Below are positions 43,273-47,047 of a stretch of DNA of 64,000 nucleotides, in pieces. This DNA comes from Parachlamydiales bacterium. Its GTDB lineage: Bacteria > Chlamydiota > Chlamydiia > Chlamydiales > SM23-39. How positions within the stretch are numbered: position 1 is the stretch's first letter; the number at the start of each line of letters is the position of its first letter. The translations under genes and the position numbers were made by a program. The stretch covers positions 128,001 to 192,000 of the forward strand of contig JBNLAH010000003.1 in assembly GCA_050302075.1 (NCBI GenBank), written 5' to 3'. The notes beneath the pieces were generated by a model, which ran no database searches, was not told the DNA's origin, and was given only the letters and a program-made list of their open reading frames with translations.

Positions 43273-43698
43273 TTAGCTAAAGGTTAATTTTTGACTTATC
43301 CTGTTAAGCAATTCATTTTTTAGATATTTAATAGAGTAAAAAATGTTATTTGCAAAAAACACAGACCAAGGAGAAATCTCTAATTTAACAAGGCACCCCC
43401 AAGGAGTACAAGTAGCAATTTTTTTTACAATGTTACTGGGGAGAAGAAATGCTATGCCTTCTTTTGATAAATTTTTATAAATAAATCCAGGCATATTTAT
43501 TAATGGCAAAAAGCGCCAAGCTAATATATCCTTGTCTCTAATGTAACTTATATAGCTACGAACCGTGAGATTCACAAATAAAAAAACTGTAACTAACGCC
43601 ATAACTTTTGCTGCTATCTTTAATTGTTCCTTTGAAAACAACTGTTCATTTTCAGATTTATGTGTTGGTATCAACTTGGTTTTTATTAATTGGATCAT
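43273..43698 (-). CDS. MIQLIK-family small membrane protein, copy A
   Basis: One of four paralogs; TM at about aa 30-48, PG.I.KN.S..GI.FL.P.N core, GAGGAG RBS. Confidence 0.75.
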   Translation of the reverse strand: MIQLIKTKLIPTHKSENEQLFSKEQLKIAAKVMALVTVFLFVNLTVRSYISYIRDKDILAWRFLPLINMPGFIYKNLSKEGIAFLLPSNIVKKIATCTPWGCLVKLEISPWSVFFANNIFYSIKYLKNELLNRISQKLTFS

Positions 43699-43811
43699 AT
43701 TTTTAGCTCCTCGTTATTTTAGTTTTGGGCATAAAAGCTTTTAAATAAATTGTCACCTTTGCATCCTCAAGCCCAATTTACCCTCAAATGCTACTTGAAT
43801 CTTTTAATAAT

Positions 43812-44249
43812 TTAGCATCCTGATAAAAATTTAGGATGTTTATCTAACAGCCACATAATTTTTATTACCAGCCTACTAATGCTCCAAGGACCTTTTGAGT
43901 AATCATATACAAAACAACCACAAAAAGTACTACTCATAGAAAAAATGCAAAAAACCCGACAGCCACTAATAACTCGAAAAAAATTTGGAGGCCAAAGAAA
44001 TGAAATCCCATCTTTAGAGATATTTTTGAAAATTATTCCAGGTATTCTTATTAAATGCACTCTTACCTGAGTGAGATCCCTTACATAGTCTTCATGGCGA
44101 TAATTATCAATGCCAATTACTAATACAGCAATTACAGTTGTAGCTATTGCCATAACCTTTATTTTTCTCTTTAATTGCTCATTTGACTGCAAGTATTCAT
44201 TTGCAGATTGATAAGTTTGTATTGATTTGTTTTTTATTAATTGGATCAT
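43812..44249 (-). CDS. MIQLIK-family small membrane protein, copy B
   Basis: Same core motif; close paralog of 44853-45281. Confidence 0.75.
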   Translation of the reverse strand: MIQLIKNKSIQTYQSANEYLQSNEQLKRKIKVMAIATTVIAVLVIGIDNYRHEDYVRDLTQVRVHLIRIPGIIFKNISKDGISFLWPPNFFRVISGCRVFCIFSMSSTFCGCFVYDYSKGPWSISRLVIKIMWLLDKHPKFLSGC

Positions 44250-44298
44250 ATTTTTAGTTCCACATTATTTATCTAGTTCTGGGTATAAAAAAGACCTT

Positions 44299-44706
44299 CT
44301 ATCTTGGCAAACATTCAATCAACTCTTTTAGGGACTTGATAGAAGAGTAAATATTTTTCACAAGAAATTCACGCCATGGGGGCATTGTTGTTTGTATAAA
44401 GCATCCATGGAAGCCACACCAAGCTATTCTTTTTCCAAAGTTACTAGGATGAAGAAAAGCTATGCCTTCTTCTGATAAATTTTTATAAATAAATCCCGGC
44501 ATAGACATTATTGGTAAGTGAGCCAAAGGTAATATATCCTTAATTGCATTGTACTGTTTATAGCTATAAACTGTGAAAACGGTGAATAAAGAAACTGTAA
44601 ATAGTCCCATAACTTTTACTGCCGTCTTTAATTGCTCATTTGAAGGAAAATGTTCATTTTCAGATTTATGTGTTGATATCAACTTAGTTTTTATTAATTG
44701 GATCAT
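44299..44706 (-). CDS. MIQLIK-family small membrane protein, copy A'
   Basis: Same core motif; closest to copy A. Confidence 0.75.
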   Translation of the reverse strand: MIQLIKTKLISTHKSENEHFPSNEQLKTAVKVMGLFTVSLFTVFTVYSYKQYNAIKDILPLAHLPIMSMPGFIYKNLSEEGIAFLHPSNFGKRIAWCGFHGCFIQTTMPPWREFLVKNIYSSIKSLKELIECLPR

Positions 44707-44852
44707 ATTTCAGCTCCACGTTATTTTAGTTTTGGGCATAAAAGCTTTTAAATAAATTATCACCTTTACATTCTCGAGCCCAATTTATCCTAGGCAAATA
44801 CCTCAAACAGAGGCGTCAAATGCTATTTGAATCTTTTAATAATTTAGCAGCC

Positions 44853-45281
44853 CTACAAAAGTTTAGGATAGCGGTCTAACATCCACAAAATTTTAGTTAT
44901 TAGCCTACTAATGCTTAAAGGACGTTTTGTGTAATTATATACAAAACAACCACAAAAAGTACTACTCATAGGAAAAATGCAAAAAACCCGGCAGCCACTA
45001 ATAACTCGAAAAAAATTTGGAGGCCAAAGAAACGAAATCCCATCTTTAGAGATATTTTTGAAAATTATTCCGGGTATTCTTATTAAATGCACTCTTACCT
45101 GAGTGATATCCCTTACAAAGGCCTCATTGCGATAATTATCAATGCCAATTATTAATGCAGTAATTACAGCTGTAGCTATTACCGTAACCTTTATTTTTCT
45201 CTTTAATTGCTCATTTGACTGCAAGTATTCATTTGCAGATTGATAAGTTTGCACTGATTTGTTTTTTATTAATTGGATCAT
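44853..45281 (-). CDS. MIQLIK-family small membrane protein, copy B'
   Basis: Close paralog of B. Its TAG replaces B's Ser codon three codons before the shared TAA. Confidence 0.75.
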   Translation of the reverse strand: MIQLIKNKSVQTYQSANEYLQSNEQLKRKIKVTVIATAVITALIIGIDNYRNEAFVRDITQVRVHLIRIPGIIFKNISKDGISFLWPPNFFRVISGCRVFCIFPMSSTFCGCFVYNYTKRPLSISRLITKILWMLDRYPKLL

Positions 45282-45304
45282 ATTTTTAGCTCCATGTTAT
45301 TTAT

Positions 45305-47047
45305 CTAGTTTTGGGGATAAAAGCTTTTAAATAAATTATCACCCTTACAGCCACGGGCCCAATTTTCTAAATACATATGAGAGGAGTGATGTAGTGTTAA
45401 TGGCTCCATAGATTGGATCTCTACTTTTTTTGCAAAAATAGTACAAACAGAGGCATCAACCACTCTTTGTGTCTCATCAGCTATTTTTTGGGGGATCCTA
45501 GGCTCATCTACTGAGTCACTTCCTAATGATCCACCCATAAAAATTATCTTTGCATCTTTTGATAGTTCAGAGAAACAGCTTCGAAAATCTTTTGAGAGAT
45601 CAATTTGATCTTCTTTTCCATTTGAGTCTTTTGGGAAAAGTATTCCATTGCTACTCTTTGCGACTTGAATGATGATAGCTGCCACTTCTCCTTGCTTTGC
45701 AGCTTCAAATGCTGCGTCGCAAACATCATAAAAATTCCAAGCTTGCTTAAATCGAAAGTCAAAATTATTAATTAACTCTCTAAAAAGCTTAATGTTATCT
45801 ATTGCAGGCCATGGTTCATTAATTGAAACTACTGCCACTTTCTTTCTTTGATCATCTTCGCAGTTTTGAAAATATTTCTCTAAAAATGGACTGTCTTTAT
45901 GTAAAAGAGACCTAGCTATAAGATCAGCCTTAATGGCTGATTCAGTAGCTAATTCATATTCAGTAAGCATAAATCTATTCACATATGGAGAGCATTTTTT
46001 AGTGCGGGGATGAAAAGCTTGATAGAGGTTCTCTCCATATAACCACTTGAGAGGGTTGCTAAATATAAATTCACCTTCTTTATTTTTTATATAAAAATCT
46101 TTAGGAAGTTTAAAAACCTGATTTTCTGGTGAATAAATAGTTTCTGATGTAGTTAAATCTGTCGGAGCATAAACCACTCTTTTACCAGTATCTGCCATTG
46201 CTTGGGCTATATTATTAAAAGGATCTCCTTTTTGTTCCCATCCAGTTATTTTTTCAATGGCAATTTCAAAAAAGTTTTTTTTTGGCTTTCCTGTAGAGCA
46301 ACTCAGAAGATAGATCTTAGCGTTAGGAGGCAGAGGTGAAAAGCAATCAGCAAAATCTGAAAAAAAATAAATTCCATAATCTAAAAAAGGAATCCAAGCG
46401 CTTCGGAAAAGTGAAGATAGCCCTATGAGGTACATATCACCATGTGCATCTATAACTATTTTTTCTAAATCTCCTGTTTTTGCCCCTTCTTTAATTGCTT
46501 CACAAAGCTCTGCAAAAGACCTTACAATTTGATATCTTGTATCATAAGGTTCATCAAAGGCCTCAAAAAGATGTGAAACGCCCCAGGGCTCCAGGGCTCC
46601 GTTATGATCATGCTCAGCAGTAGCTATAAGAAGCTTTTTCCTAGGATCATTACTGTTAAACCTCAAAAATTCCTGACCATAGGTCAAATCTGAATCAGAC
46701 ATCTCAATCTCAGCCCTCTCTGGGTTTTTCTGAGTTACCATTTTAAAGATACCATCTTTTATTCTATTTATAGCATAAGTAGCTTCGAATATCGGTTTAA
46801 AGACGCTATTTACCTTATTTAAAACATAAACTGCTTCCTTTTCTTTTGGATGAACTCTAGATATATTTATATCTGGGCAATTGGGAGAGAGGCAGTCTTT
46901 TATCCTCTGGCCATTCATAAAATGATCTATTGTCCCAAAAGCCAATGCTGCTGCTGCTGCTGTTTTTAATACTCTTGATGAAGGAATATGCTGTATTACT
47001 TGCTGAAAAGCATTTTGTATTTTTGATCCTATCGCGCTTATAAACAT
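45305..47047 (-). CDS. Effector-like protein with two clan-CD (caspase-fold)-like domains, the first intact and the second degenerate
   Basis: Internal duplication. Repeat 1 has IVIDAHG and YLLSCSTG; repeat 2 has IIIQVAK and IFMGGSLG at the same positions. Confidence 0.6.
   Translation of the reverse strand: MFISAIGSKIQNAFQQVIQHIPSSRVLKTAAAAALAFGTIDHFMNGQRIKDCLSPNCPDINISRVHPKEKEAVYVLNKVNSVFKPIFEATYAINRIKDGIFKMVTQKNPERAEIEMSDSDLTYGQEFLRFNSNDPRKKLLIATAEHDHNGALEPWGVSHLFEAFDEPYDTRYQIVRSFAELCEAIKEGAKTGDLEKIVIDAHGDMYLIGLSSLFRSAWIPFLDYGIYFFSDFADCFSPLPPNAKIYLLSCSTGKPKKNFFEIAIEKITGWEQKGDPFNNIAQAMADTGKRVVYAPTDLTTSETIYSPENQVFKLPKDFYIKNKEGEFIFSNPLKWLYGENLYQAFHPRTKKCSPYVNRFMLTEYELATESAIKADLIARSLLHKDSPFLEKYFQNCEDDQRKKVAVVSINEPWPAIDNIKLFRELINNFDFRFKQAWNFYDVCDAAFEAAKQGEVAAIIIQVAKSSNGILFPKDSNGKEDQIDLSKDFRSCFSELSKDAKIIFMGGSLGSDSVDEPRIPQKIADETQRVVDASVCTIFAKKVEIQSMEPLTLHHSSHMYLENWARGCKGDNLFKSFYPQN

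Follow-up and report, generated by a model that had tools for sequence, protein, structure and literature searches.

The stretch of DNA analyzed here, referred to as the window, comprises 64,000 nucleotides (nt) of Parachlamydiales bacterium (GCA_050302075.1, contig JBNLAH010000003.1, positions 128,001-192,000), and its minus strand carries an array of one large gene followed by four related small genes. The first gene, named Large (45305-47047), encodes a protein of 580 amino acids (aa). The small genes encode single-pass membrane proteins of two types, A and B. The order in the direction of transcription is Large, B', A', B and A. B' (44853-45281; 142 aa, B type) follows Large after an intergenic spacer of 23 nt (45282-45304), which contains a GGAG ribosome-binding site situated 8 nt ahead of the B' start. 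It is followed by A' (44299-44706; 135 aa, A type), B (43812-44249; 145 aa, 84% identical to B') and A (43273-43698; 141 aa, A type). No terminator-like site was found within the array.

Each small gene is preceded by the 3' end of Large or by a relic of it. Alignment of the upstream regions (n=4) placed the true tail before B', long relics before A' and A, and a short relic before B. Long relic 1 (44726-44834) is composed of an intact reading at 44726-44785, which translates as NWARECKGDNLFKSFYAQN followed by a stop, and of a piece with DASV codons at about 44803-44817, the source region of which is 45436-45474 in Large. The DASV and NWAREC pieces stand in different frames and about 60 nt are missing between them. 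Long relic 2 (43719-43784) is 92% identical to relic 1 over 84 nt, and its reading at 43719-43778 is NWA, a stop, GCKGDNLFKSFYAQN and a final stop. The two long relics have a common 3-nt deletion in the spacer, and the one ahead of A has lost a further 29 nt, the piece containing DASV. The short relic (44250-44298) keeps about the last 6 codons of Large, the stop and the ribosome-binding site, and only about 44 nt are left ahead of B; it carries the 'CTAGATAAATAA' form of the spacer, as found in the true end of Large. Altogether, Large can be traced in the relics over about 170 nt only.

The repeat finder detected a block of 132 nt, covering upstream sequence and first codons, in all four small-gene copies with 77-80% identity. 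B and B' matched at 91% over 300 nt, and A and A' at 80% over 289 nt. Sequence of the Large 3' end (84 nt) was present in three places, the two relics being 92% identical to each other and 70% identical, ungapped, to the true end. A match of 39 nt (74%) was also found between 44796-44834 and 45436-45474, in the VDASVC region. Array repeats of such length and identity are far beyond chance. A sequence-only reading of the same DNA had proposed this gene order, the recurrence of the Large tail, ribosome-binding site and first codons ahead of each small gene, the intact and the interrupted relic readings, a short copy at 44250-44290, and one transmembrane segment with a common core in the four small proteins; the open reading frame (ORF) coordinates, translations, alignments and hydropathy profiles agree with it on all these points. 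The VDASVC match which it described is also present, but its position is two bases off the proposed 44805-44819.

A weak promoter-like match, TTTAAA-18-TAAAAT, was observed on the minus strand in both long relics (44752-44723 and 43745-43716). Its second hexamer arises from the 3-nt deletion which separates the relics from the true spacer. It is a candidate for an internal promoter of the A-type genes. Promoter-like sites were not enriched across the region (17 against 22.3 +/- 5.1 in shuffles).

The large and small protein families and their linkage

The Large protein begins with a helical region (residues 1-126) of low model confidence, which contains a weak hydrophobic segment. It is followed by a caspase/CHAT/DUF4347-like domain (residues ~132-350) with H202-G203 and S249-C250, which are invariant in 10/10 family members, and by a second, degenerate copy of this domain (residues ~395-580). 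The second domain has Asn and Gly where the first has His and Cys, and looks like a dead copy. The AlphaFold model has two alpha/beta domains, with a predicted template modelling score (pTM) of 0.70 and a predicted local distance difference test score (pLDDT) mostly of 75-93 in the domains and below 50 in residues 1-126. In this model H202-G203 lie after the strand 194-200 and S249-C250 after the strand 244-248, and the C-terminal NLFKSFYPQN, of which NLFKSF is invariant across the large family, forms a beta strand.

Foldseek's list was given a second look by VIA-align, with the 580-residue model as query. Residues ~136-383 matched best with Tce1 (9qpe_G; Z 11.9, root-mean-square deviation (rmsd) 3.3, 155/178 aligned). 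Residues ~132-427 matched SAVED-CHAT (8tl0_B; Z 11.7), Craspase TPR-CHAT (Z 9.5) and caspases-3/6/7/8/11 (Z 9-9.6) as well. Two-lobed dehydrogenases, which topped the whole-model Foldseek search, were rejected; they had poor TM-scores and rmsd of 18-24, a global two-domain resemblance. At the sequence level, the link to DUF4347 (PF14252; clan CD, caspase-like cysteine peptidases) comes through homologues. P0010, which is 34% identical to Large, scored 27.5 bits in its second domain against a cut-off of 24.6, while P0003 (15.9 bits, E 0.011, first domain) and P0011 (14.7 bits) matched weakly. When the PDB was searched by sequence with Large or the family profile, matches did not rise above chance level, and no relative came out of a scan of contigs with the large-family profile. 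A search of 5.8 billion clustered proteins yielded only 11 relatives of Large. The model predicts a caspase-hemoglobinase alpha/beta fold with a His/Cys dyad, for which putative protease seems a fair label.

The caspase-like domain alone (profile positions ~93-238) was also observed in other proteins of the same genome, of different lengths, at C5:38786-39226 and C2:188477-188821, and in 8/36 genomes of the same family and 2/24 other genomes of the order (loci L020-L028 in relatives). This points to a wider family of DUF4347-like proteins among chlamydiae. No small-family gene was found at any of the stand-alone loci examined. Outside the window, a 165-aa ORF (C3:114642-115139; L015:2643-3140) lies just upstream of the large paralogue P0006 and opens with the N-terminal module of the large family, partly repeated (hidden Markov model (HMM) E 1e-15, three stretches). 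It appears to be a relic-like partial duplication of a large-family 5' end, the mirror image of the 3' relics of the array.

The small proteins each possess one strong hydrophobic segment within residues 28-48 (Kyte-Doolittle 19-residue maxima 1.73-2.17). In A and B types alike the first ~32 residues hardly vary, while the rest is 36-43% identical. The C-terminal part of ~90 residues has the core PG.I.KN.S..GI.FL.P.N..I..C, and P70, G71, I73, K75, N76, S78, G81, I82, F84, L85, P87, N89, I94 and C97 are invariant in all four. The AlphaFold model of a small protein is weak (pLDDT 65.5, pTM 0.37), with one long helix at 2-59 of low confidence, and the ESM Atlas gave no usable match for B'. Pfam, NCBIfam and PADLOC gave no match for the small proteins of the window; MqsA_antitoxin for B (E 0.16), far under the cut-off, was taken as noise. 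A word-indexed search found 7 proteins of this family, and a separate search of 1.84 billion representatives gave 7 true clusters. Two repetitive proteins which it also listed, P0023 and P0025, were discarded as false positives driven by repeats (8-9 short stretches each). No match was found in the 36 genomes of the same family, and three weak matches in the 24 other genomes of the order (E 0.005-0.05, 28-67 positions) were treated as chance. In these searches the small proteins form an orphan family which was previously undescribed. Between the N-termini of the large and small families there is a weak alignment (in one comparison, hhalign P = 0.0024 with a probability of 12%), and cross-matches in the genome-wide HMM search had E 0.95-1.8, so homology between the two N-terminal regions is no more than suggestive.

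Small genes were found 7-23 nt behind a large-family gene and on the same strand in 6/6 loci where the upstream DNA is visible (the window, L037, L040, L041, L042 and L045). The large proteins of the linked loci are merely 44-47% identical to Large of the window. At L040, L042 and L045 the small-family HMM matched directly behind the large genes with E 1e-21 to 1e-25 and gaps of 7-15 nt. L041:2-2574 contains the 3' end of a large gene, a small-like gene (114 aa) and then the complete large-family gene P0004, and thus reads as a tandem of whole modules and not of small genes alone. On the tree of large proteins, the paralogues without a partner fall between clades that carry one, and the pairing is therefore ancestral; it was lost, or never copied, in these paralogues.

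Array history, selection and genomic setting

The array of a related strain (L037) was compared with that of the window. Its order is Large, A'' (P0018), short relic and B (P0016), so that an A-type gene and not B' stands behind Large. P0002, P0013, P0016 and P0018 lie on one contig of 5734 nt, and the relative's order beyond Large-A''-B is deduced. The junction of an A-type gene, the short relic and B is common to both strains, and contigs of X2 and X6 show an A-type gene, the short relic, B and the long relic. In the small-protein tree, A' grouped with P0013 (92% identity) and A with P0017 (84% identity), with support 100/99, and P0018 was sister to A/P0017. B' and B grouped together (88/85), next to P0016. 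Thus orthologues of A' and A are found in the relative, but none of P0018 in the genome of the window. In agreement with the tree, the A'/A pair has a synonymous divergence (dS) of 0.63, higher than that between the two strains (transketolase 0.22, Large 0.30), and the B'/B pair a lower one (0.12).

Exact matches of 23-67 nt link every junction pair. The relative's A'' is 100% identical to A over about 80 nt at its start and 50-75% identical over the rest. Within types, dS was 0-0.15 in codons 1-32 and 0.19-0.98 downstream, where the 5' values rest on about 17-19 synonymous sites per pair, and this gradient is suggestive of exchange at the 5' ends. Low 5' dS was also found between strains, hence nucleotide-level constraint may contribute. 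The simplest reading of these patterns is that the protease tail and a relic junction recombined unequally, so that units were added or removed, and it is supported by the different first gene of the related strain together with the same short-relic junction. The junctions had been put forward as plausible recombination sites by the sequence-only reading, and the related strain agrees. The same reading held that an effector-partner pair was repeatedly duplicated and the effector body lost. The duplicated segments did carry the 3' end of Large, but the duplication of whole pairs finds no footing; since only about 170 nt of Large can be traced, tandem segmental duplications with the left breakpoint in the 3' end suffice and no loss of an effector body is required. 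The mechanism which formed the array is ordinary, and its members are in-place paralogues.

All four small genes keep open frames and ribosome-binding sites. The ratio of non-synonymous to synonymous divergence (dN/dS) was 0.35-0.63 in all 8 small-gene pairs and 0.18-0.58 from codon 53 to the end. The copies are therefore maintained under purifying selection and not decaying. Large has a dN/dS of 0.37 against the relative, and the neighbouring transketolase subunit 0.09. Identity to the relative was 80% for Large, 81-92% for the small orthologues and 96-98% for the transketolase subunits, so both families change at a higher rate than the genes around them. Two frameshifts break the Large gene of the related strain; they were made by deletions of 1 nt and 22 nt (L037:820-2530, L038:2036-3746 and the X2 contig), which leave an N-terminal ORF of 59 aa and an ORF of 475 aa.

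The array is situated between an apparent glycan-synthesis set (38060-42566), with a methyltransferase-like ORF, a HepA/MsbA-like ABC exporter and an asparagine-synthase-like amidotransferase, and a split transketolase (47425-50194), with genes of the N- and C-terminal subunits and a zinc-type dehydrogenase-like ORF. Synteny with the related strain is kept on the transketolase side. On the plus strand, a 69-aa ORF with a hydrophobic middle segment (43011-43220) is convergent with the array and is a candidate gene; it matched no family and none of the N-terminal-module HMMs. The genome (1.84 Mb in 89 contigs, 96.2% complete) carries four full-length TLC nucleotide transporter genes and a single gene of the FHIPEP export gate. 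Among named homologues, those closest to the transketolase subunit beside the array (60-64% identity) come from metagenome-assembled genomes labelled Chlamydiales, Chlamydiae, Anoxychlamydiales and Parachlamydiales. From the transporters, the export gate and these nearest neighbours, we infer an obligate intracellular lifestyle of the host.

A proposed protease-partner operon and other readings

The array is best interpreted as a lineage-specific protease-partner operon, the partner gene of which was amplified by tandem duplication and reshuffled by recombination at the junctions; we give this reading a probability of about 0.6. The first gene would encode a clan CD, DUF4347-type putative cysteine protease with one active-looking and one degenerate domain. 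The second would encode a co-transcribed small single-pass membrane protein as the cognate partner of the protease, most likely a membrane-anchored regulator, inhibitor or docking subunit. The long relic and the A and B types go back to a first tandem duplication of a segment that started about 170 nt inside the protease 3' end, and the short relic to later duplications of B-A units from about 20 nt inside this end. The relic, the ribosome-binding site and the first ~100 coding nt, near-identical between copies, would form the substrate for unequal homologous recombination, which would add or delete copies and change which partner adjoins the protease gene. The relics themselves would be by-products. 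Co-transcription, physical partnership and protease activity are predicted for the pair, and it may act towards the host, through the type III system which the genome possesses, or in the bacterial envelope.

Several points weigh against this reading. Among the distinct large-family genes with visible downstream DNA, a partner was present in 6/11. Two large paralogues of the same genome (C4:100199-101794 and C3:115543-117318) are partner-less, and no small gene lies behind P0005 (L039/L043), the G033 homologue or L046. A distant small-family member of 133 aa (C1:332492-332893; L017:2493-2894, minus strand) stands alone. It has the family N-terminal module (E 6e-6 among 5094 ORFs; whole protein E 0.02) and membrane segment with another C-terminal part, and adjoins no large-family gene. 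The expectation that the small family always lies behind the protease family thus holds at the 6/6 loci with visible context and not for this member. The relative's small genes are intact behind the broken Large gene, and so they may not depend on the full-length Large protein. The hydrophobic segment of the Large N-terminus is weak (Kyte-Doolittle 1.17), which leaves its membrane co-localization with the partner putative. The Large protein itself had no match in Pfam (0 families at E<=1), NCBIfam or PADLOC, and no trafficking domain. The small number of synonymous sites behind the 5' dS values counts on the same side.

An extension of the protease-partner reading holds that selection maintains the conserved junction (protease tail, ribosome-binding site and initial ~30 codons) as a switching site, where recombination exchanges the diversified membrane partner that is translationally coupled to the caspase-like protease. 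We see in it an outside chance. If true, the low synonymous divergence of the first 32 codons would reflect selection on the nucleotide sequence, and the locus would be a chlamydial cassette system retuning a host-directed or envelope protease.

The array could have been mis-built from fewer copies during assembly, as the genome is an assembly of 89 contigs and the unitigs of run X1 end within the stretches where B and B' are nearly identical, no single piece spanning the whole array. The Logan contigs of X1 are 100% identical to the array, but this run is probably the source sample and gives no independent evidence. Such an artefact is nevertheless highly improbable; the unique part of each of the four copies had flank-like depth in X1 (20.7-28x against 25-26x in the flanks), X1 pieces cross the Large-B', B'-A', A'-B and B-A junction regions, and independent metagenome contigs of the related strain also hold an array. 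A real array might still consist of mere neighbours in a fast-evolving, partly decaying locus expanded by neutral duplication, with no functional link between the small genes and Large. The frameshifted Large gene of the relative, the dN/dS of 0.35-0.63, far above that of the transketolase subunit, and the existence of partner-less paralogues and an unlinked distant member are all in line with this. It is quite improbable in view of the 7-23 nt adjacency kept across such divergent large proteins, and of the open frames, ribosome-binding sites and C-terminal-domain dN/dS below 1 in all four copies. A link of another kind would exist if the small proteins were pro-proteins, with a conserved leader or anchor and a variable body, cleaved by the adjacent protease. 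Precursor genes in several copies beside a processing cysteine peptidase would be the analogue, and the near-invariant first ~32 residues with a divergent rest, the protease-like gene directly upstream and the weak alignment of Large and small N-termini would fit. This too is distinctly unlikely, since the synonymous sites of the 5' ends are conserved as well, which points to recombination or nucleotide constraint and not to leader conservation alone; no cleavage motif was identified.

The sequence-only reading had compared the locus with orphan immunity arrays of polymorphic toxins. Large would then be an antibacterial or self-harmful protease toxin, the small proteins its immunity proteins and the extra copies orphan immunity genes for protection from kin. 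Small single-pass proteins directly downstream, a string of non-identical paralogues, 3' remnants of the effector gene and turnover between strains are indeed shared with the orphan immunity arrays of the V. cholerae type VI secretion system (T6SS; PMC5361080) and with the S. aureus esaG/tsaI strings, which are reported to recombine at conserved blocks (PMC9484751). The small genes are intact beside the frameshifted Large, as retained immunity genes would be, and both families outpace their neighbours (80-92% against 96-98% identity). The comparison fails on other grounds, and we consider this explanation unlikely. The relics copy one C-terminal tail and not alternative toxin tails (17/19 residues are identical in relic 1), and the array members are in-place paralogues and not horizontally acquired cassettes. 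Large has no trafficking or other Pfam domain match, and the T6SS sheath (VipB) and Hcp had no match in the 96.2% complete genome, other delivery routes not having been searched. The two large paralogues without an adjacent partner and the unlinked distant member also speak against it, as does the inferred obligate intracellular lifestyle, which would leave little scope for interbacterial killing. Furthermore, Tce1 is reported neither to inhibit E. coli nor to have an immunity gene in its vicinity (PMC13323088, PMC8262886).

If the partners are inhibitors or immunity proteins, the logic of effector and immunity would extend to an obligate intracellular lineage; if they are neither, the locus would be an ordinary lineage-specific expansion of a gene family.

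Comparison with known systems

Environmental chlamydiae have many unannotated genes which evolve rapidly and are presumed to act in dealings with the host. The Inc proteins of chlamydiae are recognized by their hydrophobic domain, which is bilobed and spans about 40-60 residues. The small proteins of the window resemble them as small, lineage-specific and fast-evolving membrane proteins in a chlamydial genome with a type III system, but they possess a single segment of about 19 residues in place of the bilobed domain. In polymorphic toxin loci, the downstream cassettes of orphan cdiA-CT/cdiI and Rhs-CT modules follow a piece of sequence with homology to the main gene, which permits recombination. 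There the fragments carry alternative toxin domains with their cognate immunity genes, whereas the relics of the window derive from the same last 20-55 codons and are decayed.

The closest structural relative, Tce1 (PA0256) of P. aeruginosa, is a putative cysteine protease whose His/Cys dyad was aligned to the TcdB protease domain; it is reported not to be inhibitory in E. coli and to have no immunity gene nearby (PMC13323088). PA0256 contains DUF4347, according to PMC8262886. Tce1 and Large have in common a His/Cys dyad on a caspase/C80-like fold. Tce1 is a single-domain protein of 310 aa, loaded on Hcp as cargo of the H3-T6SS and without a partner gene. In contrast, Large has two tandem domains, the second degenerate, an N-terminal helical and hydrophobic region, small membrane-protein genes behind it and no detectable T6SS in its genome. 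The connection of DUF4347 with a putative effector protease, made in Pseudomonas, is a recent one. No literature on DUF4347 in chlamydiae was found, and a search for chlamydiae with clan CD and effector returned nothing relevant. The protein pair is undescribed in these searches, and an obligate-intracellular-type genome is an unusual setting for such an architecture.

Among array systems, the esaG, tipC and tsaI genes of the type VII secretion systems of Firmicutes form tandem immunity strings downstream of toxins (Garrett et al. 2022, PMC9484751). Like the array of the window, they consist of non-identical paralogues behind an effector gene, and recombination at conserved blocks changes the copies between strains. 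Conserved blocks together with differences in copies and order between strains, by which the dynamics of esaG-type arrays are recognized, were observed here as well. In those strings immunity is established and the toxins are polymorphic, while the window array has a chlamydial host and its homology block includes a 3' relic of the upstream gene. The V. cholerae arrays share with it small genes behind an effector gene, effector 3' ends inside the array and turnover by recombination (Kirchberger et al. 2017, PMC5361080). They grow by horizontal insertion of different effector-immunity modules; the window array consists instead of in-place paralogues of one family, with the resident tail copied. 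Its relics record how the array was constructed and the related strain shows another arrangement, so the locus offers a concrete candidate protease-partner pair and a clean example of segmental duplication and unequal recombination outside the usual toxin-immunity systems.

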